A stretch of DNA of 64,000 bases from Mobula hypostoma (Eukaryota), in NCBI RefSeq assembly GCF_963921235.1, contig NC_086097.1:101930001-101994000 (forward strand). Reading direction: 5' to 3'. Under the pieces are notes generated by a model. It was not told the origin of the DNA. It saw nothing but the letters and a program-made list of their open reading frames with translations, and made no database searches. A program made the translations under genes and the position numbers. This document shows positions 9,830 through 64,000 of the stretch, one piece after another; position 1 is the first letter of the stretch, and the number at the start of each line of letters is the position of its first letter.

Positions 9830-10160
9830 AGGTTACTTGAAGGCAGATGATAAAATAAGCCATAATCAGCATGGTTTCCTCAAGGGAAAATCGTGCTTGA
9901 CAAATCTGTTGGAATTCTTTGAAGAGATAACAAGCAGGATAGCCAAAGGAGAATCGGTTGATGTTATGTACTTGGATTTTCAGAAGGCCTTTGACAAGGT
10001 GCCATACGTGAGGCTACGCAACAAGCTATGAGCCCACAGTATTACAAGTAAGATACTAGAACGGAGGAAGCAGTGTCCCACTGGCAGGAGGCAAACAGTG
10101 GAATAAAGAGTGCCCTGGCAGCTGGTGACTAGGGTTCTGTGCTGGGACCAATTCTTTTTA
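9830..10160 (+). mobile_element. CR1 LINE RT fragment, 5' half; continues at ~12464-12745
   Basis: NQHGFLKGKSCLTNLLEFFEE...DVMYLDFQKAFDKVP. Ends at GSVLGPILF and resumes TLYVNDLD after the nested CR1. Confidence 0.85.
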
Positions 10161-33271: not shown

Positions 33272-35170
33272 TAGCAACACACATCAAAGTTGCTGGTGAA
33301 CGCAGCAGGCCAGGCAGCATCTCTAGGAAGAGGTGCAGTCAACGTTTCGGGCCGAGACCCTTCATCAGGACTAACTGAAGGAAGAGTTAGTAAGAGATTT
33401 GAAAGTGGGAGGGGGAGGGGGAGATCCAAAATGATAGGAGAAGACAGGAGGGGGAGGGATGGAACCAAGAGCTGGACAGGTGATTGGCAAAAGGGATATA
33501 AGAGGATCATGGGACAGGAGGTCCAGGGAGAAAGAAAAGGTGGGGGGAACCCAGAGGATGGGCAAGGGGTATAGTCAGAGGGACAGAGGGAGAAAAAGGA
33601 GAGAGAAAAAAGAATGTGTGTATATAAATAAATAACGGATGGGGTAAGAGGGGGAGGTGGGGCATTAGCAGAAGTTTGAGAAGTCAACGCTCATGGCATC
33701 AGGTTGGAGGCTACCCAGACAGAATATAAGGGGTTGTTCCTCCAACCTGAGTGTGGCTTCATCTTTACAGTAGAGGAGGCCGTGGATAGACATATCAGGA
33801 TGGGAATAGGACATGGAATTAAAATGTGTGGCCACTGGGAGATCCTGCTTTCTCTGGCGGACAGAGCGTAGGTACCTCAAACCTGAGGGACGGAGAGGGG
33901 TGGAGAGGGAAAGATGTGCTTAGTGGTGGGGTCCTGTTGAAGGCGGCGGAAGTTGCGGAGGATAATGTGCTGGATCTGGAGGCTGGTGGGGTGGTAGGTG
34001 AGAACAAGGGGAACTCTCCCTGTTGTGGTGGCGGGAGGATGGGGTGAGGGCCAAAGTGCGGGGAATGGAGGAGATGTGGGTGGGGGCATCATTGACGGCA
34101 GAAGAAAAACCACGATCCTTAAAGAAAGAGGATATTTGAGATGTCCTGGAATGGAAAGCCTCATCCTGGGAGCAGATGCGGCAGAGACGGAGGAACTGGG
34201 AATAGGGAATGGCATTTTTGCATGTGGCAGGGTGGGAAGAGGTATAGTTGAGGTAGTTATGAGAGTCAGTGGGCTTATAGAAGATGTCAGTGGACAATCT
34301 GTCTCCAGAGATGGCGAGCAAGAGATTGAAAAGGGGAGAGAAGTGTCCGAGATGGACCGAGTGAATTTGAGGGCTAGGTGGAAGTTAGAAGCAAAGTTGA
34401 TGAAATTGACGAGCTCAGCATGGGTGCAGGAAGCACCAACAATTTAGTCATCAATGTAGCAAAGGAAAAGTTGGGGAGCAGTACCAGAATAGGATTGGAG
34501 CATAGACTGTTCCACATAACCAACAAAGAGGCAGGCATAGCTGGGGCCCATGCGAGCGCCCATAGCTACACTCTTGGCCTGAAGAAAGTGGAAAGAGCCA
34601 AAAGAGAAGTTATTAAGTGTGAGTACCAATTCCGCCAACCGGAGGAGGGTGGTGGTGGTGGGGAACTGGTGGGGTCTATTGTCCAGAAAGTAGCGGAGGG
34701 CTTTGAGGCCTTCTTGATGGGAATGGAAGTGTTTAAGGATTTGACATCCATAGTGAAAATGAAGCAGTCAAGACCGGGGAACTGGAAGTTATTGAAGAGG
34801 TGGAGGGCATGGGATGTATCCTGGATGTAGGTGGGAAGGGACCAAATGGAGTCCAGGTAGGCAGATACATGTTTGGTGGGGCAGGAGCAGGCAGAAGCTA
34901 TGGGTCTACCGGGACAGTCAGGCTTGTGGATCTAGGGGAGGAGGTAAAACCGAGCAGTGTGGTATGTGGGAATTATGAGTTTTGTGGCTGAGGATGGAAG
35001 TTCTCTGGAGTTGATAAGGGCAGAGGTGGTACGGGAGACAATGGTTTGATGTTTTTGGTGGGTCCTGTTCCAGGGGTAAGTAAGAGGAGGTGTCAGAGAG
35101 CTGCATTTGGCCTCAGTGAGGTAGAGATTCACTGCCAGACTACTAAGGCACCACCTTTGTCTGCGGGTTA
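33272..35170 (-). mobile_element. Penelope-like element: 3' pLTR plus decayed RT and partly deleted GIY-YIG; truncated at the satellite
   Basis: ADKGGALVVW (~35140-35165), MDVKSL, ELVLTLNNFSF, AMGARMGPSYACLFVG, YIDD, TDIFYKPTD, AIPYSQFLRLCRICS. Internal deletion near 33880. Confidence 0.92.
33337..33372 (-). ncRNA. Minimal type I hammerhead ribozyme in the PLE pLTR
   Basis: Minus strand reads AGTC-CTGATGA-AGGGTCTCGGCCC-GAAA-CGTT-GACT. Same fold as 1085-1120, with a GUU triplet. Confidence 0.85.
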
Positions 35171-38100: not shown

Positions 38101-41100
38101 ATTATTGTTCTTTTCTGTGAGTGAGGGGTCGGGAATTGTTATTGTTATTTTCTGTGAGTGAGGTGTTGGGGATTGTTATTGTTGTTCTTTTCTGTGAGTG
38201 AGGGGTCGAGGATTGTTATTATTGTTCTTTTCAGTGAGTGAGGGGTCAGCGATTGTTATTGTTATTCTTTTCTGTGAGTGAGGGGTCGGGAATTGTTATT
38301 GTTGTTATTTTCTGTGAGTGAGGTGTTGGGGATTGTTATTGTTGTTCTTTTCTGTGAGTGAGGGGATCAGGGATTGTTATTGTTGTTCTTTTCTGTGAGT
38401 GAGGGGTCAGGGATTGTTATTGTTATTCTTTTCTGTGAGTGAGGTCGGGGATTGTTAGTGACGTTGTTCTTTTCTGTGAGTGAGGGCTCAGGGATTGTTA
38501 TTGTTCTTTTCAGTGAGTGAGCGGTCAGGGATTGTTATTGTTGTTCTTTTCTTATGTGAGGGGGTCGGGAATTGTTATTGTTGTTCTTTGCTATGAGTGA
38601 GGGGGTAGGGATTTGTTAGTGACATTGTTCTTTTTTGTAAGTGAGGGTTTGGAGATTGTTATTATTGTTCTTTTCTGTGAGTGAGGGGATCGGGGATTGT
38701 TAGCGACGTTGTTCTTTTCTGTAAGTGAGGGTTTGGAGTTTGTTATTATTGTTCTTTTCTGTGATGAGGGGTCGGGAATTGTTATTGTTGTTCCTTTCTG
38801 TGAGTGAGGGGTCGGGGATTGTTATTATTCTTTTCAGTGAGTGAGGGGTCAGGGATTGTTATTGTTCTTTTCTCTGAGTGAAGGGGTCAGGGATTGTTAT
38901 TGTTCTTTTCTGTGAGTGAGGGGTCAGGGATTGTTATTGTTTTTTTCAGTGAGTGAGGGGTCGGGGATTGTTAGTGACGTTGTTCTTTTCTGTAAGTGAG
39001 GGGGTCGGGGATTGTTATTGTTATTCATTTCTGTGAGTGAGGGTTTGGGGATTGTTATTGTTCTTCTCTGTGAGTGAGGGGTTTGGGGATTGTTATTATT
39101 GCTCTTTTCTGTGGAGTGAGGGGGTCAGGGATTGTTAGTGACGTTGTTCTTTTCTGTAAGTGAGGGTTTGGGAATTGTTATTATTGTTCTTTTCAGTGAG
39201 TGAGAGGTCGGGGATTGTTATTGTTCCTCTTTTCTGTGAGTGAGGGGGTCAGGGATTGTTATTATTGTTCTTTTCTGTGAGTGAGGCTTTGGTGATTGTT
39301 ATTATTGTTCTTTTCTGTGAGTGAGGGGGTCGGGGATTGTTATTGTTGTTCTTTTCTATTAGTGAGGGAGTCGGGGATTGTTAGTGATATTGTTCTTTTC
39401 TGTAAGTGAGGGGGTCAGGGATTGTTATTGGTATTCTTTTCTGTAAGTGAGGGGGTCGGGAATTGTTGTTGTTTCTCTTTTCTGTGAGTGAGGGGGTCAG
39501 GGATTGTTATTATTGTTCTTTTCTGTGAGTGAGGGGTCAGGGATTGTTATTGGTATTTTTTTCTGTGAGTGAGGCTTTGGGGATTGTTATTGTTCTTCTC
39601 TGTGAGTGAGGGGGTCAGGGATTGTTATCGTTCTTTTCAGTGAGTGAAGGGGTCGGGGATTGTTATTGTTATTCTTTTCTGTGAGTGAGGGTTTGTGGAT
39701 TGTTATTGTTTTTTTCAGTGAGTGAGGGGTCGGGGATTGTTATTATTGTTCTTTTCTGTGAGTGAGGGGGTCGGGGATTGTTAGTGACGTTGTTCTTTTC
39801 TGTGAGTGAGGGCTCAGGGATTGTTATTGTTCTTTTCTGTGAGTGAGGGGGTCAGGGATTGTTATTGTTGTTCTTTTCTGTGAGTGAGGGGTCGGGAATT
39901 GTTATTGTTGTTCTTTTCTGTGAGTGAGGGGTCCCGGATTGTTATTATTGTTCTTTTCAGTGAGTGAGGGGTTCAGGGATTTTTATTGTTGTTCTTTTCT
40001 ATGAGTGAGGGGGTCGGGGATTGTTATTGTTGTTCTTTTCTATGAGTGAGGGGGTAGGGATTTGTTAGTGACATTGTTCTTTTTTGTAAGTGAGGGTTTG
40101 GAGATTGTTATTATTGTTCTTTTCTGTGAGCGAGGGGGTCGGGGATTGTTAGCGACGTTCTTTTCTGTAAGTGAGGGTTTGGGGTTTGTTATTATTGTTC
40201 TTTTCTGTGATGAGGGGTCGGGAATTGTTATTGTTCTTTTCTGTAAGTGAGGGGTCGGGAATTGTTATTATTGTTCTTTTCAGTGAGTGAGAGGTTGGGG
40301 ATTGTTATTGTTGCTCTTTTCTGTGAGTGAGGGGGTCAGGGATTGTTATTGTTCTTTTCTGTGAGTGAGGGGTCAGGGATTGTTATTGTTTTTTTCAGTG
40401 AGTGAGGGGTCGGGGATTGTTAGTGACGTTGTTCTTTTCTGTAAGTGAGGGGGTCGGGGATTGTTATTGTTATTCATTTCTGTGAGTGAGGGTTTGGGGA
40501 TTGTTATTGTTCTTCTCTGTGAGTGAGGGGTTTGGGGATTGTTATTATTGCTCTTTTCTGTGGAGTGAGGGGGTCAGGGATTGTTAGTGACGTTGTTCTT
40601 TTCTGTAAGTGAGGGTTTGGGAATTGTTATTATTGTTCTTTTCAGTGAGTGAGAGGTCGGGGATTGTTATTGTTCCTCTTTTCTGTGAGTGAGGGGGTCA
40701 GGGATTGTTATTATTGTTCTTTTCTGTGAGTGAGTCTTTGGTGATTGTTATTATTGTTCTTTTCTGTGAGTGAGGGGGTCGGGGATTGTTATTGTTGTTC
40801 TTTTCTATTAGTGAGGGAGTCGGGGATTGTTAGTGATATTGTTCTTTTCTGTAAGTGAGGGGGTCAGGGATTGTTATTGGTATTCTTTTCTGTAAGTGAG
40901 GGGGTCGGGAATTGTTGTTGTTTCTCTTTTCTGTGAGTGAGGGGGTCAGGGATTGTTATTATTGTTCTTTTCTGTGAGTGAGGGGTCAGGGATTGTTATT
41001 GGTATTTTTTTCTGTGAGTGAGGCTTTGGGGATTGTTATTGTTCTTCTCTGTGAGTGAGGGGGTCAGGGATTGTTATCGTTCTTTTCAGTGAGTGAAGGG

Positions 41101-44100
41101 GTCGGGGATTGTTATTGTTATTCTTTTCTGTGAGTGAGGGTTTGTGGATTGTTATTGTTTTTTTCAGTGAGTGAGGGGTCGGGGATTGTTATTATTGTTC
41201 TTTTCTGTGAGTGAGGGGGTCGGGGATTGTTAGTGACGTTGTTCTTTTCTGTGAGTGAGGGCTCAGGGATTGTTATTGTTCTTTTCTGTGAGTGAGGGGG
41301 TCAGGGATTGTTATTGTTGTTCTTTTCTGTGAGTGAGGGGTCGGGAATTGTTATTGTTGTTCTTTTCTGTGAGTGAGGGGTCCCGGATTGTTATTATTGT
41401 TCTTTTCAGTGAGTGAGGGGTTCAGGGATTTTTATTGTTGTTCTTTTCTATGAGTGAGGGGGTCGGGGATTGTTATTGTTGTTCTTTTCTATGAGTGAGG
41501 GGGTAGGGATTTGTTAGTGACATTGTTCTTTTTTGTAAGTGAGGGTTTGGAGATTGTTATTATTGTTCTTTTCTGTGAGCGAGGGGGTCGGGGATTGTTA
41601 GCGACGTTCTTTTCTGTAAGTGAGGGTTTGGGGTTTGTTATTATTGTTCTTTTCTGTGATGAGGGGTCGGGAATTGTTATTGTTCTTTTCTGTAAGTGAG
41701 GGGTCGGGAATTGTTATTATTGTTCTTTTCAGTGAGTGAGAGGTTGGGGATTGTTATTGTTGCTCTTTTCTGTGAGTGAGGGGGTCATGGATTGTTTTTG
41801 TTAATCTTTTCTGTGAGTGAGGCTTTGGCGATTGTTATTGTTCTTCTCTGTGAGTGAGAGGATCAGGGATTGTTATCGTTCTTTTCAGTGAGTGAAGGGG
41901 TCGGGGATTGTTATTATTGTTCTTTTCTGTGAGTGAGGAGGCCGGGGATTGTTAGTGACGTTGTTCTTTTCTGTAAGTGAGTGCTCAGGGATTGTTATTA
42001 TTCTTTTCAGTGAGTGAGGGGTCAGGGATTGTTATTGTTATTCTTTTCTGTGAGTGAGGGGGTCGGGGATTATTAGTGACGTTGTTCTTTTCTGTGAGTG
42101 AGGGCTCAGGGATTGTTATTGTTCTTTTCAGTGAGTGAGGGATCTGGGATTTTTATTGTTGTTCTTTTCTATGAGTGAGGGGGTCGGGGATTGTTATTAT
42201 TGTTCTTTTCTATGAGTGAGGGGGTAGGGATTTGTTAGTGACATTGTTCTTTTTTGTAAGTGAGGGTTTGGGGATTGTTATTGTTGTTCTTTTCTGTGAG
42301 TGAGGGGGTCGGGAATTGTTAGCGACGTTGTTCTTTTCTGTAAGTGAGGGTTTGAGTTTTGTTATTATTGTTCTTTTCTGTGAGTGAGGGGTCGGGAATT
42401 GTTAGTGACGTTGTTCTTTTCTGTAAGTGAGGGTTTGGGGATTGTTATTATTGTTCTTTTCTGTGAGTGAGGGGTCGGGAATTGTTATTGTTGTTCTTTT
42501 CTGTGAGTGAGGGGTCGGGGATTGTTATTATTGTTCTTTTCAGTGAGTGAGGGGTCAGGGATTTTTATTCTTGTTCTTTGCTATGAGTGAGGGGGTAGGG
42601 ATTTGTTAGTGACATTGTTCTTTTTTGTAAGTGAGGGTTTGGGGATTGTTATTGTTGTTCTTTTCTATGAGTGAGGGGGTCGGGGATTGTTATTCTTGTT
42701 CTTTGCTATGAGTGAGGGGGTAGGGATTGTTATTGTTATTCTTTTCTGTGAGTGAGGGGTCAGGGATTTTTATTGTTGTTCTTTTCTATGAGTGAGGGGT
42801 CAGGGATTTTTATTGTTGTTCTTTTCTATGAGTGAGGGGGTCGGGGATTGTTATTGTTGTTCTTTTCTATGAGTGAGGGGGTAGGGATTTGTTAGTGACA
42901 TTGTTCTTTTTTGTAAGTGAGGGTTTGGGGATTGTTATTATTGTTCTTTTCTGTGAGTGAGGGCGTCGGGGATTGTTAGCGACGTTGTTCTTTTCTGTAA
43001 GTGAGGGTTTGAGTTTTGTTATTATTGTTCTTTTCTGTGAGTGAGGGGTCGGGAATTGTTATTGTTCTTCTTTTCTGTGAGCGAGGGGGTCGGGGATTGT
43101 TAGTGACGTTCTTTTCTGTAAGTGAGGGTTTGGGGTTTGTTATTATTGTTCTTTTCTGTGAGTGAGGGGTCGGGAATTGTTATTGTTGTTCTTTTCTATG
43201 AGTGAGGGGGTCGGGGATTGTTATTATTGTTCTTTTCTATGAGTGAGGGGGTAGGGATTTGTTAGTGACATTGTTCTTTTTTGTAAGTGAGGGTTTGGGG
43301 ATTGTTATTGTTCTTTTCTGTGAGTGAGGGGGTCGGGGATTGTTAGCGACATTGTTCTTTTCTGTAAGTGAGGGTTTGGGGTTTGTTATTATTGTTCTTT
43401 TCTGTGAGTGAGGGGTTGGGAATTGTTATTGTTGTTCTTTTCTATGAGTGAGGGGTCGGGGATTGTTATTATTCTTTTCAGTGAGTGAGGGGTCAGGGAT
43501 TGTTATTGTTATTTTCTGTGAGTGAGGAGGTCGGTGATTGTTATTGTTATTCTTTTCTGTGAGTGAGCGGTCGGGGATTGTTATTGTTGTTCTTTTCTGT
43601 GAGTGAGGGGGTCGGGGATTGTTATTGTTGTTCTTTTCTATTAGTGAGGGAGTCGGGGATTGTTAGTGATATTGTTCTTTTCTCTAAGTGAGGGGGTCAG
43701 GGATTGTTATTGGTATTCTTTTCTGTAAGTGAGGGGGTCGGGAATTGTTGTTGTTTCTCTTTTCTGTGAGTGAGGGGGTCAGGGATTGTTATTGGTTTTT
43801 TTTCTGTGAGTGAGGCTTTGGGGATTGTTATTGTTCTTTTCTGTGAGTGAGGGGGTCGGGGATTGTTAGTGACGTTGTTCTTTTCTGTGAGTGAGGGCTC
43901 AGGGATTGTTATTGTTCTTTTCTGTGAGTGAGGGGGTCAGGGATTGTTATTGTTGTTCTTTTCTGTGAGTGAGGGGTCCCGGATTGTTATTATTGTTCTT
44001 TTCAGTGAGTGAGGGGTTCAGGGATTTTTATTGTTGTTCTTTTCTATGAGTGAGGGGGTCGGGGATTGTTATTGTTGTTCTTTTCTATGAGTGAGGGGGT

Positions 44101-47100
44101 AGGGATTTGTTAGTGACATTGTTCTTTTTTGTAAGTGAGGGTTTGGAGATTGTTATTATTGTTCTTTTCTGTGAGTGAGGGGGTCGGGGATTGTTAGCGA
44201 CGTTCTTTTCTGTAAGTGAGGGTTTGGGGTTTGTTGTTATTGTTCTTTTCTGTGATGAGGGGTCGGGAATTGTTATTGTTGTTCTTTTCTGTAAGTGAGG
44301 GGTCGGGGATTGTTATTATTGTTCTTTTCAGTGAGTGAGAGGTTGGGGATTGTTATTGTTGCTCTTTTCTGTGAGTGAGGGGGTCATGGATTGTTTTTGT
44401 TAATCTTTTCTGTGAGTGAGGCTTTGGCGATTGTTATTGTTCTTCTCTGTGAGTGAGAGGATCAGGGATTGTTATCGTTCTTTTCAGTGAGTGAAGGGGT
44501 CGGGGATTGTTATTATTGTTCTTTTCTGTGAGTGAGGAGGCCGGGGATTGTTAGTGACGTTGTTCTTTTCTGTAAGTGAGTGCTCAGGGATTGTTATTAT
44601 TCTTTTCAGTGAGTGAGGGGTCAGGGATTGTTATTGTTATTCTTTTCTGTGAGTGAGGGGGTCGGGGATTATTAGTGACGTTGTTCTTTTCTGTGAGTGA
44701 GGGCTCAGGGATTGTTATTGTTCTTTTCAGTGAGTGAGGGATCTGGGATTTTTATTGTTGTTCTTTTCTATGAGTGAGGGGGTCGGGGATTGTTATTATT
44801 GTTCTTTTCTATGAGTGAGGGGGTAGGGATTTGTTAGTGACATTGTTCTTTTTTGTAAGTGAGGGTTTGGGGATTGTTATTATTGTTCTTTTCTGTGAGT
44901 GAGGGCGTCGGGGATTGTTAGTGACGTTCTTTTCTGTAAGTGAGGGTTTGAGTTTTGTTATTATTGTTCTTTTCTGTGAGTGAGGGGTCGGGGATTGTTA
45001 GTGACGTTGTTCTTTTCTGTAAGTGAGGGTTTGGGGTTTGTTATTATTGTTCTTTTCTGTGAGTGAGGGCTCAGGGATTGTTATTGTTCTTTTCAGTGAG
45101 TGTGGGGTCAGGGATTTTTATTGTTGTTCTTTTCTATGAGTGAGGGGGTCGGGGATTGTTATTCTTGTTCTTTGCTATGAGTGAGGGGGTAGGGATTTGT
45201 TAGTGACATTGTTCTTTTTTGTAAGTGAGGGTTTGGGGATTGTTATTGTTGTTCTTTTCTGTGAGTGAGGGCGTCGGGGATTGTTAGCGACGTTGTTCTT
45301 TTCTGTAAGTGAGGGTTTGAGTTTTGTTATTATTGTTCTTTTCTGTGAGTGAGGGGTCGGGAATTGTTAGTGACGTTGTTCTTTTCTGTAAGTGAGGGTT
45401 TGGGGTTTGTTATTATTGTTCTTTTCTGTGAGTGAGGGGTCGGAAATTGTTATTGTTGTTCTTTTCTGTGAGTGAGGGGTCGGGGATTGTTATTATTGTT
45501 CTTTTCAGTGAGTGTGGGGTCAGGGATTTTTATTGTTGTTCTTTTCAGTGAGTGTGGGGTCAGGGATTTTTATTGTTGTTCTTTTCTATGAGTGAGGGGG
45601 TCGGGGATTGTTATTCTTGTTCTTTGCTATGAGTGAGGGGGTAGGGATTTGTTAGTGACATTGTTCTTTTTTGTAAGTGAGGGTTTGGGGATTGTTATTA
45701 TTGTTCTTTTCAGTGAGTGTGGGGTCAGGGATTTTTATTGTTGTTCTTTTCTATGAGTGAGGGGGTCGGGGATTGTTATTGTTGTTCTTTTCTATGAGTG
45801 AGGGGGTAGGGATTTGTTAGTGACATTGTTCTTTTTTGTAAGTGAGGGTTTGGGGATTGTTATTGTTGTTCTTTTCAGTGAGTGAGGGGTCAGGGATTGT
45901 TATTGTTATTCTTTTCTGTGAGTGAGGGGGTCGGGGATTATTAGTGACGTTGTTCTTTTCTGTGAGTGAGGGCTCAGGGATTGTTATTGTTCTTTTCAGT
46001 GAGTGAGGGATCTGGGATTTTTATTGTTGTTTTTTTCTATGAGTGAGGGGGTCGGGGATTGTTATTATTGTTCTTTTCTATGAGTGAGGGGGTAGGGATT
46101 TGTTAGTGACATTGTTCTTTTTTGTAAGTGAGGGTTTGGGGATTGTTATTATTGTTCTTTTCTGTGAGTGAGGGCGTCGGGGATTGTTAGTGACGTTCTT
46201 TTCTGTAAGTGAGGGTTTGAGTTTTGTTATTATTGTTCTTTTCTGTGAGTGAGGGGTCGGGGATTGTTAGTGACGTTGTTCTTTTCTGTAAGTGAGGGTT
46301 TGGGGTTTGTTATTATTGTTCTTTTCTGTGAGTGAGGGCTCAGGGATTGTCATTGTTCTTTTCAGTGAGTGTGGGGTCAGGGATTTTTATTGTTGTTCTT
46401 TTCTATGAGTGAGGGGGTCGGGGATTTTTATTGTTGTTCTTTTCTATGAGTGAGGGGGTAGGGATTTGTTAGTGACATTGTTCTTTTTTGTAAGTGAGGG
46501 TTTGGGGATTGTTATTGTTGTTCTTTTCTGTGAGTGAGGGCGTCGGGGATTGTTAGCGACGTTGTTCTTTTCTGTAAGTGAGGGTTTGAGTTTTGTTATT
46601 ATTGTTCTTTTCTGTGAGTGAGGGGTCGGGAATTGTTAGTGACGTTGTTCTTTTCTGTAAGTGAGGGTTTGGGGTTTGTTATTATTGTTCTTTTCTGTGA
46701 GTGAGGGGTCGGAAATTGTTATTGTTGTTCTTTTCTGTGAGTGAGGGGGTCAGGGATTGTTATTGTTGTTCTTTTCTGTGAGTGAGGGGTCCCGGATTGT
46801 TATTATTGTTCTTTTCAGTGAGTGAGGGGTTCAGGGATTTTTATTGTTGTTCTTTTCTATGAGTGAGGGGGTCGGGGATTGTTATTGTTGTTCTTTTCTA
46901 TGAGTGAGGGGGTAGGGATTTGTTAGTGACATTGTTCTTTTTTGTAAGTGAGGGTTTGGAGATTGTTATTATTGTTCTTTTCTGTGAGTGAGGGGGTCGG
47001 GGATTGTTAGCGACGTTCTTTTCTGTAAGTGAGGGTTTGGGGTTTGTTGTTATTGTTCTTTTCTGTGATGAGGGGTCGGGAATTGTTATTGTTGTTCTTT

Positions 47101-50100
47101 TCTGTAAGTGAGGGGTCGGGGATTGTTATTATTGTTCTTTTCAGTGAGTGAGAGGTTGGGGATTGTTATTGTTGCTCTTTTCTGTGAGTGAGGGGGTCAT
47201 GGATTGTTTTTGTTAATCTTTTCTGTGAGTGAGGCTTTGGCGATTGTTATTGTTCTTCTCTGTGAGTGAGAGGATCAGGGATTGTTATCGTTCTTTTCAG
47301 TGAGTGAAGGGGTCGGGGATTGTTATTATTGTTCTTTTCTGTGAGTGAGGAGGCCGGGGATTGTTAGTGACGTTGTTCTTTTCTGTAAGTGAGTGCTCAG
47401 GGATTGTTATTATTCTTTTCAGTGAGTGAGGGGTCAGGGATTGTTATTGTTATTCTTTTCTGTGAGTGAGGGGGTCGGGGATTATTAGTGACGTTGTTCT
47501 TTTCTGTGAGTGAGGGCTCAGGGATTGTTATTGTTCTTTTCAGTGAGTGAGGGATCTGGGATTTTTATTGTTGTTCTTTTCTATGAGTGAGGGGGTCGGG
47601 GATTGTTATTATTGTTCTTTTCTATGAGTGAGGGGGTAGGGATTTGTTAGTGACATTGTTCTTTTTTGTAAGTGAGGGTTTGGGGATTGTTATTATTGTT
47701 CTTTTCTGTGAGTGAGGGCGTCGGGGATTGTTAGTGACGTTCTTTTCTGTAAGTGAGGGTTTGAGTTTTGTTATTATTGTTCTTTTCTGTGAGTGAGGGG
47801 TCGGGGATTGTTAGTGACGTTGTTCTTTTCTGTAAGTGAGGGTTTGGGGTTTGTTATTATTGTTCTTTTCTGTGAGTGAGGGCTCAGGGATTGTTATTGT
47901 TCTTTTCAGTGAGTGTGGGGTCAGGGATTTTTATTGTTGTTCTTTTCTATGAGTGAGGGGGTCGGGGATTGTTATTCTTGTTCTTTGCTATGAGTGAGGG
48001 GGTAGGGATTTGTTAGTGACATTGTTCTTTTTTGTAAGTGAGGGTTTGGGGATTGTTATTGTTGTTCTTTTCTGTGAGTGAGGGCGTCGGGGATTGTTAG
48101 CGACGTTGTTCTTTTCTGTAAGTGAGGGTTTGAGTTTTGTTATTATTGTTCTTTTCTGTGAGTGAGGGGTCGGGAATTGTTAGTGACGTTGTTCTTTTCT
48201 GTAAGTGAGGGTTTGGGGTTTGTTATTATTGTTCTTTTCTGTGAGTGAGGGGTCGGAAATTGTTATTGTTGTTCTTTTCTGTGAGTGAGGGGTCGGGGAT
48301 TGTTATTATTGTTCTTTTCAGTGAGTGTGGGGTCAGGGATTTTTATTGTTGTTCTTTTCAGTGAGTGTGGGGTCAGGGATTTTTATTGTTGTTCTTTTCT
48401 ATGAGTGAGGGGGTCGGGGATTGTTATTCTTGTTCTTTGCTATGAGTGAGGGGGTAGGGATTTGTTAGTGACATTGTTCTTTTTTGTAAGTGAGGGTTTG
48501 GGGATTGTTATTATTGTTCTTTTCAGTGAGTGTGGGGTCAGGGATTTTTATTGTTGTTCTTTTCTATGAGTGAGGGGGTCGGGGATTGTTATTGTTGTTC
48601 TTTGCTATGAGTGAGGGGGTAGGGATTTGTTAGTGACATTGTTCTTTTTTGTAAGTGAGGGTTTGGGGATTGTTATTGTTGTTCTTTTCAGTGAGTGAGG
48701 GGTCAGGGATTGTTATTGTTATTCTTTTCTGTGAGTGAGGGGGTCGGGGATTATTAGTGACGTTGTTCTTTTCTGTGAGTGAGGGCTCAGGGATTGTTAT
48801 TGTTCTTTTCAGTGAGTGAGGGATCTGGGATTTTTATTGTTGTTCTTTTCTATGAGTGAGGGGGTCGGGGATTGTTATTATTGTTCTTTTCTATGAGTGA
48901 GGGGGTAGGGATTTGTTAGTGACATTGTTCTTTTTTGTAAGTGAGGGTTTGGGGATTGTTATTATTGTTCTTTTCTGTGAGTGAGGGCGTCGGGGATTGT
49001 TAGTGACGTTCTTTTCTGTAAGTGAGGGTTTGAGTTTTGTTATTATTGTTCTTTTCTGTGAGTGAGGGGTCGGGGATTGTTAGTGACGTTGTTCTTTTCT
49101 GTAAGTGAGGGTTTGGGGTTTGTTATTATTGTTCTTTTCTGTGAGTGAGGGCTCAGGGATTGTCATTGTTCTTTTCAGTGAGTGTGGGGTCAGGGATTTT
49201 TATTGTTGTTCTTTTCTATGAGTGAGGGGGTCGGGGATTTTTATTGTTGTTCTTTTCTATGAGTGAGGGGGTAGGGATTTGTTAGTGACATTGTTCTTTT
49301 TTGTAAGTGAGGGTTTGGGGATTGTTATTGTTGTTCTTTTCTGTGAGTGAGGGCGTCGGGGATTGTTAGCGACGTTGTTCTTTTCTGTAAGTGAGGGTTT
49401 GAGTTTTGTTATTATTGTTCTTTTCTGTGAGTGAGGGGTCGGGAATTGTTAGTGACGTTGTTCTTTTCTGTAAGTGAGGGTTTGGGGTTTGTTATTATTG
49501 TTCTTTTCTGTGAGTGAGGGGTCGGAAATTGTTATTGTTGTTCTTTTCTGTGAGTGAGGGGTCGGGGATTGTTATTATTGTTCTTTTCAGTGAGTGTGGG
49601 GTCAGGGATTTTTATTGTTGTTCTTTTCAGTGAGTGTGGGGTCAGGGATTTTTATTGTTGTTCTTTTCTATGAGTGAGGGGGTTGGGGATTGTTATTCTT
49701 GTTCTTTGCTATGAGTGAGGGGGTAGGGATTTGTTAGTGACATTGTTGTTTTTGTAAGTGAGGGTTTGGGGATTGTTATTATTGTTCTTTTCAGTGAGTG
49801 TGGGGTCAGGGATTTTTATTGTTGTTCTTTTCTATGAGTGAGGGGGTCGGGGATTGTTATTGTTGTTCTTTGCTATGAGTGAGGGGGTAGGGATTTGTTA
49901 GTGACATTGTTCTTTTTTGTAAGTGAGGGTTTGGGGATTGTTATTGTTGTTCTTTTCTGTGAGTGAGGGGTCAGGGATTTTTATTGTTGTTCTTTTCTAT
50001 GAGTGAGGGGTCAGGGATATTTATTGTTGTTCTTTTCTATGAGTGAGGGGGTCGGGGATTGTTATTGTTGTTCTTTTCTATAAGTGAGGGGGTAGGGATT

Positions 50101-52810
50101 TGTTAGTGACATTGTTCTTTTTTGTAAGTGAGGGTTTGGGGATTGTTATTATTGTTCTTTTCTGTGAGTGAGGGCGTCGGAGATTGTTAGCGACGTTGTT
50201 CTTTTCTGTAAGTGAGGGTTTGAGTTTTGTTATTATTGTTCTTTTCTGTGAGTGAGGGGTCGGGAATTGTTATTGTTCTTCTTTTCTGTGAGCGAGGGGG
50301 TCGGGGATTGTTAGTGACGTTGTTCTTTTCTGTAAGTGAGGGTTTGGGGTTTGTTATTATTGTTCTTTTCTGTGAGTGAGGGGTCGGGAATTGTTATTGT
50401 TGTTCTTTTCTGTGAGTGAGGGGTCGGGGATTGTTATTATTGTTCTTTTCAGTGAGTGAGGGGTCAGGGATTTTTATTGTTGTTCTTTTCTATGAGTGAG
50501 GGGGTCGGGGATTGTTATTCTTGTTCTTTGCTATGAGTGAGGGGGTAGGGATTTGTTAGTGACATTGTTCTTTTTTGTAAGTGAGGGTTTGGGGATTGTT
50601 ATTATTGTTCTTTTCTGTGAGTGAGGGGGTCGGGGATTGTTAGCGACATTGTTCTTTTCTGTAAGTGAGGGTTTGGGGATTGTTATTATTCTTTTCAGTG
50701 AGTGAGGGGTCAGGGATTGTTATTGTTATTTTCTGTGAGTGAGGAGGTCGGTGATTGTTATTGTTATTCTTTTCTGTGAGTGAGCGGTCGGGGATTGTTA
50801 TTGTTGTTCTTTTCTGTGAGTGAGGGGTCGGGGATTGTTATTATTGTTCTTTTCAGTGAGTGAGGGGTCAGGGGTTTTTATTGTTGTTCTTTTCTATGAG
50901 TGAGGGGGTTGGGGATTGTTATCGTTATTCTTTTCTTTGAGTGAGGGGGTCGGGGATTGTTATCGTTATTCTTTTCTATGAGTGAGAGGGTCGGGGATTG
51001 TTAGTGACGTTGTTCTTTTCTGTAATTGAGGGTTTGGGGTTTGTTATTATTGTTCTTTTCTATGAGTGAGGGGGTCGGGGATTTTTATTGTTGTTCTTTT
51101 CTATGAGTGAGGGGGTAGGGATTTGTTAGTGACATTGTTCTTTTTTGTAAGTGAGGGTTTGGGGATTGTTATTATTGTTCTTTTCTGTGAGTGAGGGGTC
51201 GGAAATTGTTATTGTTGTTCTTCTCTGTGAGTGATGGGGTTGGGGATTGTTATTGTTGCTCTTTTCTGTGAGTGAGAGGTCGGGGATTGTTATTGTTGTT
51301 CTTTTCTATGAGTGAGGGGGTCCGGATTTGTTAGTGACAGTGTTCTTTTCTGTGAGTTAGGGTTTGGGGATTGTTATTATTGTTCTTTTCAGTGAGTGAG
51401 AGGTCGGGGATTGTTATTATTGTTCTTTTCTGTAAGTGAGGGTTTGGGGATTGTTATAGTTGTTTTTTTCTGTAAGTGAGGGTTTGGGGATTGTTATTAT
51501 TGTTCTTTTCTGTGAGTGAGGGGGTCGGGGATTGTTAGCGACATTGTTCTTTTCTGTAAGTGAGGGTTTGGGGATTGTTATTATTCTTTTCAGTGAGTGA
51601 GGGGTCAGGGATTGTTATTGTTATTTTCTGTGAGTGAGGAGGTCGGTGATTGTTATTGTTATTCTTTTCTGTGAGTGAGCGGTCGGGGATTGTTATTGTT
51701 GTTCTTTTCTGTGAGTGAGGGGTCGGGGATTGTTATTATTGTTCTTTTCAGTGAGTGAGGGGTCAGGGGTTTTTATTGTTGTTCTTTTCTATGAGTGAGG
51801 GGGTTGGGGATTGTTATCGTTATTCTTTTCTATGAGTGAGGGGGTCGGGGATTGTTATCGTTATTCTTTTCTATGAGTGAGAGGGTCGGGGATTGTTAGT
51901 GACGTTGTTCTTTTCTGTAATTGAGGGTTTGGGGTTTGTTATTATTGTTCTTTTCTATGAGTGAGGGGGTCGGGGATTTTTATTGTTGTTCTTTTCTATG
52001 AGTGAGGGGGTAGGGATTTGTTAGTGACATTGTTCTTTTTTGTAAGTGAGGGTTTGGGGATTGTTATTATTGTTCTTTTCTGTGAGTGAGGGGTCGGAAA
52101 TTGTTATTGTTGTTCTTCTCTGTGAGTGATGGGGTTGGGGATTGTTATTGTTGCTCTTTTCTGTGAGTGAGAGGTCGGGGATTGTTATTGTTGTTCTTTT
52201 CTATGAGTGAGGGGGTCCGGATTTGTTAGTGACAGTGTTCTTTTCTGTGAGTTAGGGTTTGGGGATTGTTATTATTGTTCTTTTCAGTGAGTGAGAGGTC
52301 GGGGATTGTTATTATTGTTCTTTTCTGTAAGTGAGGGTTTGGGGATTGTTATAGTTGTTTTTTTCTGTAAGTGAGGGTTTGGGGATTGTTATTATTGTTC
52401 TTTTCTGTGAGTGAGGGGGTCGGGGATTGTTATTATTGTTCTTTTCTGTCATTGAGGGGTCGGGGATTGTTATTATTGTTCTTTTCTGTGAGTGAGGGGG
52501 TCGGGGACTGTTAGTGACCTTGTTCTTTTCTGTACGTGCGGGTTTGGGGATTGTTATTATTGTTGTTTTCACTGAGTGAGGGGTCAGGGATTGTTATTGT
52601 TATTCTTTTCTGTGAGTGAGGAGGTCGGGGATTGTCATTGTTGTTCTTTTGTGTGAGTGAGGGGGTTGTGGATTGTTAGTGACGTTCTTTTCTGTAAGTG
52701 AAGGTTTGGGGATTGTTATTGTTTTTCTTTTCTGTGAGTGAGGGAGGGGTTTGGGGTTTGTTATTGTGGCTGTTCTTTTCTGTGAGTGAGGGGGTTGGGG
52801 ATTGTTATTA
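35170..52810. repeat. ~17.6-kb satellite of ~41-bp units (about 37-44 bp; roughly 430 units), strongly G/T-rich on the + strand
   Basis: Consensus ttcttttctgtgagtgagggggtcagggattgttattgttg. Diagnostic variants recur at 1449-bp, 2813-bp and ~895-bp spacing. Confidence 0.97.
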
Positions 52811-52816
52811 TGGCAG

Positions 52817-52992
52817 AACCTGGTGATGTGGGACCTGATGGTTGAGGGGTATTAACTGTTCCTGAACCTGGTGGTGTGGGACCTGATGGTTGAGGGGTAA
52901 TAACTGTTCCTGAACCTGGTGGTGTGGGACCTGATGGTTGAGGGGTAATAACTGTTCCTGAACCTGGTGGTGTGGGACCTGATGGTTGAGGG
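52817..52992. repeat. 48-bp tandem repeat, ~3.5 units, derived from the Rex1-like ORF C-terminus
   Basis: Unit cctgaacctggtggtgtgggacctgatggttgaggggtaataactgtt. Minus strand reads RSHTTRFRNSYYPSTI (compare KAHTQRFRNSLFPSAIR at 54145-54369). Confidence 0.85.
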
Positions 52993-57964: not shown

Positions 57965-58540
57965 CTCTTGCTCTCAATGTAGGGGAGGCTGGTCCTTGTG
58001 ATAGACTGGGCTGTGTTCATAATTTTCTGCAATGTCTTGCAGTCTTGGGCAGAGCAGTTGCTCTGGATAGGATGCTTTTGGTACATGTGTAAGAACCTGT
58101 AAGGGTCATTTGGGACCTGCTGAACTTCCTTAGCTTTCAGCAGAAATAGAGACAGTTGACGCATAGCATCCACGTGGTTGGACAAGGACAAATTACTTCT
58201 GATATTTACACCTAGGAACTTGAAGCTCCCAACTATATACACCTCTGTACCACCTGATACAGACAAGGATGTGTACTCTACCCCACTTCGAGTCGCTTTT
58301 TTATCTTGCTGACACTGAGGGGAAGATTGTTGTCATGACACCATGTCACTCAGTTCTTGATCTTCTTCCTGTACTCTGACTCATTGTTGCTTGAGATCTG
58401 ACTCACTATTTGCAAATTTATAGAGGGTGTCCGAGAATCTGGCTATGCAGATGTGAGTGTACAAGCAATAAAGTAAGGAGCTGAGGATGCAGTCTTGTGG
58501 GGCATCAACATTGAGGATAATCATGGCAGAGTTATTGCTG
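57965..58540 (-). mobile_element. Degenerate Rex1/L2-like LINE fragment
   Basis: VGSFKFLGVNIRSNLS and NCSAQDCKTLQKIMNTAQSIT. Confidence 0.7.
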
Positions 58541-58851
58541 TTCTCCTGATGAGTAGATTAAATTCCAGCTGTCCTGAAGTGGCTAAGAGTGGCAAAATTA
58601 CATCCAATAACCAAGCCTAATGACCATTTTATTAAAAAAAATAACTACTATACCCAGCATTACTTGGGTTATTATACAGGCAACCATGATGTTTGCATTT
58701 ATTTCCAGGAAGCTGCGTGTAATTAAATAAAAAGTAACTTAACTATACAATTCTTCCATGAAATATTTAGGTTGTTAAAATTATGTAGATTAATTAAAGC
58801 TACCAATAAAAACATACACACTGAAAACAAAAATGCATAAAAATACTTTTA

Positions 58852-60211
58852 CATAGAAACATCGAAAACCTACAGCACAATACAAGCCCTTCGGCCCACA
58901 AAGTTGTGCCGAACATGGGTCCCTACCTTAGAAATGACTAGGGTTACCCATAGCCCTCTATTTTTCTAAGCTCAGTGTACCTATCCAAAAGTCTTTTAAA
59001 AGACCCTATCATATCCGCCTCCACCGCCATGGCCGGCAGCCCATTCCACGCACTCACCACGCTCTGCGTAAAAAAACTTACCCCTGACATCTCCTCTGTA
59101 CCTACTCCCAAGCACCTTAAATCTGTGCCCTCTTGTGGCAGCCATTTCAACCCTGGGAAAAAGCCTCTGACTATCCACAGGATCAATGCCTCTCATCAAT
59201 TTATACACCTCTATCAGGTCACCTCTCATCCTCCTTCACTCCAACGAGAAAAGGCCGAGTTCACTCAACCTGTTTTCATAAGGCGTGCTCCCCAATCCAG
59301 TCAAATATACTTGTAAACTTCCTCTGCACCCTTTCTATGGTTTCCACATCCTTCCTGTAGTGAGGCAACCAGAACTGAGCACTCTACTCAAGTGGGGTCT
59401 GACCAGGGTCCTATATAGGAGTAACATTACCTCTTGGCTCCTAAATTCAATTCTACGATTGATGAAGGCCAATACACTGTATGCTTTCTTAACCACTCAG
59501 TCAACCTGCGCAGCTGCTTTGAGCGTCCTATGGACTCGGACCCCAAGATCCCTCTGATCCTCCACATTGCCAAGAGCCTTACCATTAATACTATATTCTG
59601 CCATCATATTTAACCTACCAAAATGAACCACCTCACACTTATCTGGGTTGAACTCCATCTGCCACTTCTCAGCCCAGTTTTGCATCCTATCAATGTCCCG
59701 CTGTAACCTCTGACAGCCCTCCACACTATTTACAATGCCCCCAACCTTTGTGTCATCAGCAAACTTACTAACCCATCCCTCCACTTCCTCATCCAGGTCA
59801 TTTATAAAAATCACAAAGAGTAAGGGTCCCAGAACAGATCCCTGAGGCACTCCACTGGTGACCGACCTCCATGCAGAATATGACCCGTCTACAACCATTC
59901 TTTGCCTTCTGTGGGCAAGCCAGTTCTGGATCCACAAAGCAATGTCCCCTTGGATCCCATGCCTCCTTACTTTCTCAATAGGCTTTGCATGGGGTACCTT
60001 ATCAAATGCCTTGCTGAAAACCATATACACTACATCTACTGCTCTACCTTCATTAATGTGTTTAGTCACATCCTCAAAAAAATTCAATCAGGCTCGTAAG
60101 GCACGACCTGCCCTTGACAAAACCATGCTGACTATTCCTAATCATATTATACCTCTCCAAAAATTCATAACTCCTGCCTCTCAGGATCTTCTCCATCAAC
60201 TTACCAACCAG
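58852..60211 (-). mobile_element. CR1 LINE, same subfamily as 10161-12463, inserted in the Helitron 3' region
   Basis: FSKAFDKVPH...PQGSVLGPLLF...KFADDTK. The 3'UTR closely matches 10163-10250. Confidence 0.92.
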
Positions 60212-60452
60212 TTTTAATGCAGTTCTCCCCACATATGCATGTACTTTTATACATAATGTTTACTGATTTCAATGTTGAAGTGCTTTAGAATACTTTATTT
60301 CTTTCTTTTGAATCCAGAGTAAAGATGTACAGTATATGTTTCAACTCTGAAACAACTGAAAAAAAAACGTAACCATTTGAAAATTAATGGGTTTCAAGTC
60401 AACAATTTGCCCTTGTGCTGTGTTAATGCTCAAAGCAAAACTGAGTCTGAAG

Positions 60453-61200
60453 CAACAGACCAAATGCTACAAGCACTCAGCAGGCCAGGCAACATATAGG
60501 GAAAAAGAGGAGGCAACGTGTCCGGTTGAGGGCCTTCACAGGGTGAAAGATAGAGGAAGTTTTAGCCAATATAAAAGGTGAGGAGAGGGAGGAGTGTAAT
60601 AAGAACTGGTGATACCTGGATCCAGGGAGGAGGGGGAATAGGCAGACGGAGGAAGGGGGAGAGGGAAAAGCAACAGAGTCTGGAAGATGATAGTTGGAGG
60701 CTACAAATGGATGAAGGAAGCTGGTAGCAGAGGAAGATGGAGCATGGAACCAAATAAGGAAAGTGAGTAGGACAGGAGAACAGCAGGGGGAGAGGGCTCA
60801 GGGCGAGCAGTGTGTGGGTTTTGGGCAGATTGGGAACCAGAAGGCAGGGGATAGAAACTGGATGGAAGGGAGTGAGGTGGAAAGGGTGAGATCAGCAGTG
60901 CGTGAAATGTAGGATATGTGGGTGAGAGCTCCATCAACCAGAGTTTGGGGCCGGTGCTTGTTTCCTGAAAAAAGAGGACATTTCTGATGTCAAGGAATGA
61001 AAGGCCAAGAATAAATATGATGGAGATGGAAAAAGTGCATAAAAAGAATGCTGTCCTTACAAGAGGCAGAATGGGAAGAGGTGCAGCCTAGGTAGCTGTG
61101 ACAGTCAGAGGTTTATCAGTAAATATCAGTGGATAGTTTTCCTCCTGAGGTGGAGGCGGACAGAGATCAAGAAAGGGGAGAATGAAGTCAAAAAAGGTCC
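60453..61200 (-). mobile_element. Old Penelope-like element remnant (pLTR and RT C-terminal pieces)
   Basis: cagcaggccaggcaacat pLTR motif, purine-rich pLTR body, and blocks parallel to 34110-34340. Confidence 0.65.
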
Positions 61201-61319
61201 AATTTCTTTCATGCCTATCACATTATCAATAGATATGTTGTACGGGTTGTCTGGAAAGCCGCAAGGTGTCTTTGTTCTTTGCATTGTTTTAAAATTGCTC
61301 TTTCATGCACATAGATATA

Positions 61320-61932
61320 ACCACGAAGAAGACACGCCAATGTCTCTGCTTCCTTAAGGAGATTTGGCATGTTATCGAAGACACTGACAAACGTTTATGG
61401 ATGTGCAATGGAAAGCATTCTGACTGACTGCATCATAGGTATGGTATCGTATGGTACATCGTATGGTACGGAAACTCCAATTCACAAGAATGCAAGAGGC
61501 TACAGAGAGTCATGGACCTCACCTAGAGCCCATTTGTGCAATCCAGTTCCATCACAGATACAGCTCTCCCTATCTATGCTGATGCCCCATAGATGACACC
61601 CATCATGAGGGACCGCAACACCCGGGCCATGCCCTCTTCTCAATGTTGCCATCAGGCAGGCGGTAGAGTAGCCTGAAGACTCATACCTCAAGCTCCAACA
61701 ACCATGAGGTTTCTTAACCAACCTCAGAAACCCTAACATTATATCGCATTATATTTTGCTTTCTCTCTCTCAAATTCCCTAATGCTATTATGTTTTTTTG
61801 TAGTGTTCCATGTATAATTCATGCTAATTTAAGTTCATGTTAACTTAGGTTTGTCATTTCTGTAGTGTATTATGCTGCTATTGCTACAAATAGCTAATTT
61901 TCATTGCCTATGACAATAAACTTTAACTTGAA
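61320..61932 (+). mobile_element. Rex1/L2-like LINE 3' fragment inserted in the Helitron helicase
   Basis: KTLTNVYGCAMESILTDCI, the ggccatgccctcttctc motif, and tail gacaataaactttaacttgaac. Confidence 0.7.
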
Positions 61933-62949
61933 CCATTAATAATTCAAACAGTGTTGAGAGATATTTGCAAAAACAACTTGCATCATATCATAATGTGATG
62001 TAATAACTTGTCCCAAGTTTTATATTGAAATCATTCCTGTTTAATCTTAACGTTTGATTTCTCCATTTCTTAATCTGAGTAAATTCAAAGTAAACTCTCT
62101 TGCAAATGGAGTATCGATAAAATGCACTTGATTTTTTTCACGTTTTTTAACTTCTAATGTTTCCTTAAATATATGACACATTAATACAGGCTTTTTATTT
62201 GTCTGCTTTGGTATTCTGTAGAATTGCTGGTAGTCTTTCATTGAAATCTCTGGCAAGCACAGAAGAAACATTGACCATTAATTTATTATTGTGTTTATGA
62301 TCTGACAATGTTTGATCTAATGTTTCAGTGGCTGCTTTGGGAGCCATCGTGCATTCACCTTGATGATAAGTTTTTTATGATCTATTAGAACTTCTTCCAT
62401 TGCAGTCCCTTGATCAATGTTACACTTAGAGTCTCCACACTTGACAAATTTAAACAGAGTTTAAATCCCAAATATGCAGTATTTCCCCTGAACAACAGCT
62501 TTGAAGTAATGCCTTAAGATGCAACAATCACACCATTCATGTTTTGTCTTCGAACTTTAGCTGAAAGTGGATTAATAAGGAAATAATTTTCCATTCCATC
62601 AGGAGCAACCAAAAATATCATTGGTTGATCATCGTAAACAGCCTCTATGATAATATCAAAGGTATTTCTTTGATACTTTGCCAAACCTGTTTTTTCATCT
62701 CTCAGATAATTTGTCCAGCTGGTTTGAATTATTACTAGTTTCCCACAGAACAGTCATTTTCTTTTGTGGATTACTTCAATCAAAAGTACTTAGATGAGGT
62801 CCACTTTAGTACGTTCTAAATAGATTTTTCAAAAATCATCAATTTTCAATGAGTAAAATTAAAATTTGCCTCCCTTTGGGCTATAGATAACCTTTTTAAG
62901 GGAAAAAAGTGTGGTGCACATTTTTATGCAAAACTTACAAGCAGAGATT

Positions 62950-64000
62950 GCTTTATTACTGAGCTATGACAGTACTGAGGAGGAGGTAGCTGGGTTACAA
63001 ACAAAGGCAACATGTAGTGACTGCTAGCAAGAAGAGGTTGATGATAGAACAAAATTGTCAACAGGATGAGTTGCAATGTAAGAGGCAGATAAAATCAAAA
63101 AGGGTGAAGAATACAGGACTGACGGTGTTGTACTTGTATACACGCAGTATATGGAACTTGTAGCGCAGTTACAGATTGGGAAGCATGACATTGTGGGCAT
63201 CAGTGATTCATGGCTGAAAGAAGATTATAGCTGGGAGCTTAACGTCCAAGGATGCACATGGAAATGGCAAATGGAATATAGTTTAGGGAAGTGTATGGTC
63301 ATACACTTTGGTAGAAGGAATAACGGTATAGACTATTTTTTTAAATGGGGAGAAAATTCAAAACTCAGAAGTGGAAAGGGATTTGGGAGTCCTTGTGCAG
63401 GAATCCTTAAAGGTTAACTTGCAGACTGAATCGGTGGTAAAGAGGTAAATGCCAGGACAGCATCCATTTCAAGAGGACTGGAACATAAGACCAAGGATGT
63501 GATGCTGAGGCTTTATAAGGTATTGGTCAGACTGCACTGGAGTATTGTGAAGAGTTTTGGTCTCCTTATCTGAGAAAAGATATGCTGGCATTGGCAAGTG
63601 TTCAGGGGAAGTTCTAGGACTGCTTCAGGAATAAAAGGGTTAACAAATGAGGAGCACTGGGCCAGTATTCACTGGAGTTTAAAAGAATGAGGAGGGATCT
63701 CATTGAAACCTTTTGAATATTGAAAAGCCTAGATAGAGTGGATGTGGAGAGCTTGCTTCCACAGTGAGTGAGTCTAGGACCAGAGGGTAAGCTTCTGAAT
63801 AGAGGGATGTCCATTTAGAATAGAGATGAGGAGGAATTTCTTTAGCCAGAGGGTAGTGAATCTGTAGGATTCATTGCCACAGACAGCTGTGGAGCCCAAG
63901 TCACTGAGTATATTTAAAGAGGAGTTTGATGGGTTCTTGATCAATCTGGGCATCAGAGAAGGCAGCAGAATGGAGTTGAGAGCTATAATAAATCAGACAG
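62950..64000 (+). mobile_element. Decayed, internally deleted CR1 (endonuclease start fused to RT 3' part)
   Basis: ELVAQLQIGKHDIVGISDSWLKE joined to WQMEYSLGKCMVIHFGRRN, with RRMRRDLIETF-like sequence downstream. Confidence 0.8.

Follow-up and report, generated by a model that had tools for sequence, protein, structure and literature searches.

A 64,000-nt stretch of the Mobula hypostoma genome (RefSeq assembly GCF_963921235.1, contig NC_086097.1, positions 101,930,001 to 101,994,000, forward strand; the whole stretch is called the window below) carries a decayed mobile element on the minus strand of its positions 58645-62842. We interpret this locus, with a probability of roughly 93%, as the last 1.5 kb, on the 3' side, of a canonical Helitron (HLE1) of the autonomous kind. 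It would have entered the germ line of a cartilaginous fish ancestor a single time, in the distant past, and undergone neutral decay from then on. What is new is this copy; the kind of element is already known, as canonical Helitrons of cartilaginous fishes are in print. Judged from its sequence, the copy is dead today as a transposon, with the Walker A lysine lost and the reading frame broken many times. A first-pass annotation, made from the letters alone, had read the region as an ancient Helitron hidden from the open reading frame (ORF) track, and this reading is borne out by a PIF1 match above the Pfam cut-off, by relatives of the Helitron type and by a 3' terminus at 58645. The pieces of the element, in window coordinates, are as follows.

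61933..62842, minus strand: Helitron piece 1, a decayed stretch that runs from the end of the Rep-helicase linker through helicase motifs I to about IV, recognised by Pfam PIF1 and by a helicase profile

61205..61311, minus strand: Helitron piece 2, the ERAIL motif with about 30 codons after it, which takes up the profile at the position where piece 1 leaves off

60212..60450, minus strand: Helitron piece 3, which covers helicase motifs V-VI and the C-terminus, with a stop at 60271-60269, and then the first part of the 3' non-coding region

58645..58850, minus strand: Helitron piece 4, the AT-rich 3' non-coding part, ending with TAG at 58645 and followed by T and a T-rich flank

58652..58669, minus strand: putative decayed 3' terminal hairpin of a canonical Helitron, an 18-nt likeness to the related loci L007 and L022

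With stops read as X, 62720-62415 of piece 1 matched Pfam PIF1 at E=2.3e-10 and 40.9 bits (cut-off 25.9), and a second frame of piece 1, 62359-62150, matched the same family below the cut-off (E=3.6e-4). Among the 15 stretches scanned with Pfam, two matched PIF1, one matched RVT_1 (59497-60087), three gave weak unrelated matches and nine gave none. In addition, a RepHel profile of 690 positions was built from 75 of the 120 proteins found in a search with the relative P0022, namely those with a single Walker A and a recognisable C-terminus, and the window DNA was aligned to it piece by piece, with controls, by a frameshift-aware aligner. An aligner with a cheap long-insertion state was rejected because it threaded spurious matches through the inserts. 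Piece 1 scored 164 bits over 62775-61933, where the maximum in 30 shuffles was 22 bits; it is identical to the profile consensus at 102 of 281 codons and contains six stops and four frameshifts, and its alignment to the relative P0091 begins at 62842. In an independent hmmsearch with an earlier profile, three frames of piece 1 obtained 62.7, 42.5 and 10.8 bits. The PIF1-like motifs quoted in the first-pass annotation were all found on the minus strand, at the same places and in the same order; no long ORF covers them, and a six-frame translation of 58400-63200 shows all of them. They comprise a Walker A-like stretch at 62615-62574 that no longer has its lysine, a Walker B-like stretch interrupted by a frameshift near 62356, the stretch ARDFNERLP in the minus-strand translation of piece 1, a split W..ERAIL motif with W at 61933, ERAIL at about 61310 and a long interspersed element (LINE) between them, and LSFALSINTAQGQ at 60445-60407 in piece 3, where the quoted C-terminal stretch is likewise present.

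Piece 3 is significant on its own. Its stretch 60448-60275 scored 39.3 bits, with 29 of 57 codons equal to the profile consensus, and extends to the last profile position; this score was reached by none of 600 random window segments and none of 200 shuffles (shuffle maximum 19 bits). The same piece scored -2.1 bits in hmmsearch with the earlier profile, and therefore frameshift handling is needed to detect it. Piece 2, placed on the expected stretch of the profile, is marginal at 13 bits: of 1500 random segments, 9 score as high, and of 1500 shuffles, 22 do. The pieces lie on one strand and in order, and their profile positions (206-488, 489-531 and 626-690) are colinear with the Helitron helicase profile. 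When the window outside the satellite at 36-52 kb was scanned in 48 tiles, scores above 28 bits were obtained only in the three tiles of the Helitron locus; the next-best tile, at 19 kb, gave 27.8 bits through a gappy alignment of 19% identity over a different transposon remnant.

About 94 helicase codons (profile positions 532-625, including the 2B subdomain) are absent where a Penelope-like element interrupts the locus. This part of the profile was sought on both strands of five neighbouring stretches and gave at most 17.8 bits (no matched control; other controls gave 17-19 bits). As it occurs in no piece and in no neighbouring stretch, the codons appear to have been lost at the Penelope junction, presumably at the time of that insertion or later. 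The Penelope-like insert sits exactly where the codons are gone, which suggests a target-site deletion on insertion or a later recombination. The reassembly from four pieces proposed earlier holds, with small corrections: pieces 1 and 3 are significant, piece 2 is marginal, piece 4 (58645-58850) is non-coding, and joining them does not yield a whole helicase, as the 94 or so codons that should link piece 2 to piece 3 are gone.

The marginal score of piece 2 and this gap might be taken to mean that the pieces are not one element, piece 1 being a Helitron remnant and pieces 2-4 chance matches or another insertion, and it is true that the rejected aligner threads junk through the inserts too. However, piece 3 reaches significance by itself and accounts for precisely the part of the C-terminus that was left, every piece is in order on the same strand, piece 2 continues the profile directly after piece 1, and a recognisable high-copy repeat fills each gap. 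We therefore consider separate origins very improbable.

The relatives of the protein point in the same direction as the single-Helitron reading. With piece 1 as the query, an exhaustive phmmer (HMMER) search gave 157 proteins at E<=0.001, 150 of them listed, the best at 2.8e-9; a word-index protein search with the same piece gave 35 candidates and no match. Thirty-seven of the 150, chosen as top-ranked or long, were scanned with Pfam: PIF1 was found in 35 and Helitron_like_N (PF14214) also in 12, two were unrelated, and many others were fragments. HLE2 elements (Helentron or Helitron2) are marked by DUF6570, short terminal inverted repeats and insertion between T and T. DUF6570 was not among the families shown for these 37, and the 3' end resembles those of HLE1 loci. 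Ten relatives were looked up, and the four with organism names were all arachnid. The search with P0022 listed 120 proteins, 108 of them with Helitron_like_N, under the names of spiders, a pseudoscorpion, rotifers, nematodes, a snail, insects, a flatworm, a scorpion and the tailed frog. Motif patterns that we take to be of the Helitron type occur in 122 of the 150 listed matches, and what we take to be the cellular Walker A pattern occurs in none of the other 28, on which alone it was tried. Two hallmarks of HLE1 are seen in these data: a C-terminal superfamily 1 helicase of the PIF1 family (Pfam PF05970 and a colinear profile match to the last residue), and a helicase of the RepHel type (relatives fused to Helitron_like_N and a linker match upstream of motif I). 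One relative, P0099, is a Helitron-type helicase with a C-terminal ubiquitin hydrolase (UCH) domain; according to the HELIANO study, UCH occurs mainly in HLE2 subgroups (PMC11417382).

The sole Pfam family matched, PIF1, covers cellular and Helitron helicases alike, the locus has no introns, and no Rep domain is in view. All this could be expected of a processed pseudogene or a decayed duplicate of the host's cellular PIF1 gene. Such a gene copy is nevertheless barely credible, and the idea is largely refuted already: the named best matches are arachnid proteins of the Helitron type, the homology reaches into the RepHel linker and the Helitron 3' end, 122 of the 150 matches carry Helitron-type patterns, and no cellular PIF1 chain was found in PDB at E<=10 with either frame of piece 1. 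The first-pass annotation had named the absence of a PIF1 or Helitron match, or a best match to cellular PIF1, as findings that would speak against it; the outcome was 40.9 bits against a cut-off of 25.9, with relatives of the Helitron type.

By definition, HLE1 elements begin with TC, end with a hairpin and CTRR, and insert between A and T (PMC11417382, PMC2997563). We fetched 69 related loci and examined the 3' ends of the 35 that reach the C-terminus of the protein; nine of the 35 show a hairpin and then CTAG followed by T, 134-583 nt past the coding end. In the window, the distance from the stop to the end of the element is about 265 nt without the CR1 insert, which falls within the 134-583 nt of the nine related loci. 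The terminus lies at 58645, exactly where the earlier boundary had been drawn, and a T follows it within a T-rich flank. The window sequence 58669-58652 differs from the 18-nt hairpin common to L007 and L022 by five changes, all of them transitions, so that a short hairpin near the 3' end, also required of HLE1, can be recognised (with a post hoc threshold and weak folding today). Piece 4 also gave a weak coding match of 17.6 bits, a score that 4 of 200 shuffles reach; it was dismissed as chance, since piece 3 already covers its profile positions.

Several results weigh against the assignment to HLE1. The most specific Helitron feature, the Rep (HUH) domain, lies outside view, as the upstream positions of the RepHel profile found no match in 62740-64000, and the 5' TC end is not within the window (it is outside or lost). 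Scored against the whole profile, piece 2 is not significant (91 of 200 shuffles reach its score). The PDB search with piece 1 returned two sequences at E<=10, the better of which, Helraiser, is not significant (E=0.17), and the second frame of piece 1 returned none. The hairpin match is unique in the window on both strands and did not occur in 20 shuffled windows, but L007, L022 and the threshold were chosen after the window had been seen, and the match is therefore supportive rather than a clean probability; furthermore, the hairpin folds today no better than shuffles (76 of 200). The element ends with TAGTAG before the T, compared with CAGCTAG in intact loci, so that the terminal tetramer is GTAG and not CTRR, a difference explicable by one transition and one lost base at such decay. 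Finally, no empty insertion site was found among the listed contigs of relatives.

By shared words, piece 1 is present in 20 of the 24 listed runs, which represent nine organisms, with shares from 1.0 (a possible source) to 0.07. No RNA data set was listed as carrying it, which speaks neither for nor against expression. Four of the 24 runs (X10, X14, X15 and X17) were aligned to the window. Contigs of X10 span 58324-58665, 60884-61497 and 61677-62969, crossing junctions, those of X14 span 58476-58700 and 62428-62971, and one of X15 spans 62825-63085; in X17, only 62034-62249 of piece 1 is covered among the listed stretches. The contigs of organisms D, E and F that cross junctions show about 3-8% substitutions and many indels. 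Orthologous loci, which had been proposed as a check, are thus present: the junctions of the window recur in contigs from related species that diverge by 3-8%, and the copy was therefore inherited. At 62708, X10 and X14 both have an indel where the window has one of its frameshifts, so decay has continued since the split. At 82% likeness, the Helitron bins have a depth of about 1-26 in X10, X14 and X15, compared with thousands to millions for the inserts, and the depth of piece 4 in relatives is low. As little but the ortholog maps at 82% in these three relatives, the copy must either predate any young high-copy family or have decayed a long way from it. The low depth need not mean a small family, since copies each 0.25 from their ancestor would not be expected to cross-map at 82%.

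Neutral decay of four intact frames was simulated to estimate the extent of decay, as substitutions per site and not as an absolute date. Of 84 nearly invariant helicase columns, 48 (57%) are retained, a level that the simulation places at about 0.3 substitutions per site; the density of stops, 2.1 per 100 codons, is placed at about 0.2. The decay is thus about 0.2-0.3 substitutions per site, as expected without selection. Presence in nine organisms by shared words, at low copy in three of them, might suggest a remnant kept by selection as a regulatory or structural element. However, the orthologous contigs are 3-8% apart with many indels, like the neighbouring repeats, four retroelements have inserted into the remnant, and its decay fits the neutral simulation, so that selective maintenance seems extremely improbable.

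A bolder proposal is that the neutrally decaying copy represents an old HLE1 family, not yet catalogued and earlier than the thousands of ray and skate copies, with an insertion shared by sharks and batoids. We regard this as unlikely. If true, the insertion could be among the oldest datable vertebrate Helitron insertions, in a slowly evolving lineage, and orthologs spanning the shark-ray split would help to tell whether Helitrons have long resided in vertebrates or have invaded them repeatedly. The available part of a survey of fossil insertions gives no Helitron older than the amphibian-amniote split and no pre-amniote example (Frith 2022, PMC9004415).

The locus is interrupted by the following four elements.

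58851..60211, minus strand: nested CR1 LINE, 5'-truncated, the least decayed insert, with RVT_1 at E=6e-23

60451..61204, minus strand: nested decayed Penelope-like element, 71-74% identical to the window copy at 33300-34344

61312..61932 (5' boundary approximate, 61312-61325), plus strand: nested LINE 3' fragment, 5'-truncated, 71-78% identical to other window copies

62950..64000, running off the window end (left boundary approximate, 62940-62976), plus strand: fourth interrupting element, CR1-like, at 73% identity

The CR1 insert is 90% identical over 1357 nt to the window copy at 10156-11496, and in relatives it shows a depth of about 10^6 and loose ends at 60210. The named eukaryotic relatives of highest identity to its protein are from sharks (69-76%), and there are many bird matches at about 50%, a pattern in favour of a cartilaginous fish, shark or ray, as the host. 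Three CR1-like reverse transcriptases that are 65-75% identical to it (P0320, P0332 and P0347) are labelled Klebsiella, Proteus and Carnobacterium, lie on contigs of 1.6-3 kb, and probably represent host contamination of bacterial assemblies. The Penelope-like insert matches, at the protein level, the ORF at 18-827, which has a weak GIY-YIG match. Record 7 of run X10 (organism D) fits 60884-61497 and then continues for about 1 kb unlike the window, a hint of a lineage-specific insertion or deletion inside the Penelope copy. The LINE fragment at 61312-61932 reaches a depth of about 8000 in X10, compared with about 10 for the Helitron. It had been placed from 61320, and its start is probably nearer 61312, judging from the reading frame at its 5' edge. 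We take it to be Rex1/L2-like by resemblance; no Pfam family matched, and the Rex1 label was not confirmed. In the fourth insert, 63264-63958 is 73% identical to the window copy at 3752-3045, and the depth rises from about 15 to more than 6000 at the 62976 bin in three relatives. This insert hides or has replaced the Rep (5') half of the Helitron. The junctions of the inserts showed no convincing target-site duplication.

Because the inserts are nested inside the Helitron, the Helitron is older than they are. If half the pairwise distance is taken as the distance of an insert from its family, this would not exceed about 0.05 for the CR1 and 0.12-0.15 for the LINE and the Penelope-like element. 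By decay, the order appears to be the Helitron first, the LINE and Penelope next, and the CR1 last. The earlier claim that the Helitron predates the CR1, Penelope-like and Rex1 copies is thus supported by nesting and by the decay estimates, apart from the name Rex1. The locus provides a worked example of a transposable element fossil that is missed by ORF-based detection and can be dated in relative order through nested insertions.

As a refinement concerning the origin only, the Helitron may have entered by horizontal transfer from an invertebrate and been inherited vertically afterwards. Its named relatives are mostly invertebrate (spiders, pseudoscorpion, rotifers, nematodes and insects), Helitrons are documented to have moved horizontally between animals (Thomas 2010, PMC2997563), and elements from fishes, arthropods, cnidarians, amphibians and mammals occur together in one HLE1 subgroup (PMC11417382). 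On the other hand, no close partner was found: the best identity is 39% among 147 intact proteins, in which pairs have a median of 56%, and about 59% at the DNA level. With decay divided out, the ancestor would be about 60-65% identical to its best relative, which is within the ordinary spread of intact families. Meanwhile, databases hold few transposable element proteins from chondrichthyans, which may bias the matches to invertebrates. In the tree, the fossil has a terminal branch of 1.66 and falls outside a clade of 135, a position uninformative on vertical descent versus old horizontal transfer. A horizontal origin is a real possibility, on balance somewhat doubtful.

Elsewhere in the window, repeats abound. 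A 17.6-kb tandem array at 35183-52809 consists of about 435 copies of a 40-nt unit and has an extreme strand skew (GC skew +0.6, AT skew -0.5). Two long arrays of related 26-nt units, at 12763-17035 and 20835-23786, comprise about 165 and 114 copies, have a short relative at 5845-6072, and create long spurious ORFs. Minisatellites with a 48-nt unit at 3750-4466, 2825-2921 and 52816-52992 have apparently grown out of LINE coding sequence; the array at 3750 has about 15 copies and is open in three frames. Overlapping ORFs on the minus strand at 18879-20292 resemble a decayed hAT-type transposase; they gave no Pfam match at E<=0.01, and 19205-19868 is matched by a domain of P0083. A remnant of a Gypsy-like long terminal repeat retrotransposon lies at 7406-9409 on the plus strand, with a PNMA-like gag (E=4e-19), a weak zinc knuckle and a reverse transcriptase.

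Canonical Helitrons have been reported from the same host class. The HELIANO survey recorded HLE1 in four of eight chondrichthyan genomes, including three batoids and the white shark (Li et al. 2024, PMC11417382), with 1651 copies in Hypanus sabinus, 4818 in Mobula birostris, 11154 in Leucoraja erinacea and one in Carcharodon carcharias. Its supplement includes Repbase HLE1 families from Amblyraja radiata and Callorhinchus milii. Helitron-1_AmRa and Helitron-2_AmRa (A. radiata) and Helitron-1_CM (C. milii) belong to the same element group as the copy described here, a comparison made by listing and not by sequence. Helitron is also among the transposable element superfamilies of a whale shark paper (PMC8455134), and a vertebrate survey reports Helitrons as lost in birds only (PMC4350176). 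In the accessible parts of three further papers (PMC6817897, PMC10468316 and PMC5381603), nothing specific is added. No paper that deals with this locus, or with Helitrons of batoids by name, turned up in our search, which did not extend to subscription journals, Repbase Reports or bioRxiv supplements, where such descriptions may exist. Among the 147 intact proteins, the highest identities (38-39%, over up to 359 residues) were to invertebrate or metagenome RepHel proteins (such as P0187, P0228, P0192 and P0180, with bdelloid rotifer names among them), which are intact and far too distant from the fossil to be donors.

The best PDB match of piece 1, in the Walker A region, is the Helraiser/Helibat1 transposase (PDB 7lcc, PMC4778049), which shares the end architecture. 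The match is weak (E=0.17), and Helraiser is a reconstructed active protein of 1496 aa, whose ATP-hydrolysis lysine is not kept in the copy here. In Helraiser, RepHel nicks the 5' end, the helicase unwinds the DNA, the 3' hairpin terminates the reaction, and insertion takes place at an AT dinucleotide within AT-rich DNA (Grabundzija 2016, PMC4778049); the Walker A lysine is essential (PMC4778049). By analogy with these experiments, the living ancestor of the copy would have moved by rolling-circle transposition: its Rep nuclease would have nicked the 5' end of the element, its PIF1 helicase would have unwound the DNA after the nick, its 3' hairpin would have ended the reaction, and insertion would have taken place between A and T. 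Compared with the canonical HLE1 Helitrons (PMC11417382), the copy described here is dead, split four times, without about 94 codons and terminated by GTAG, and its Rep half and 5' TC are not visible. It resembles them in its PIF1-type helicase with a RepHel linker, its short 3' non-coding part, the hairpin near its 3' end, and the T that follows this end.

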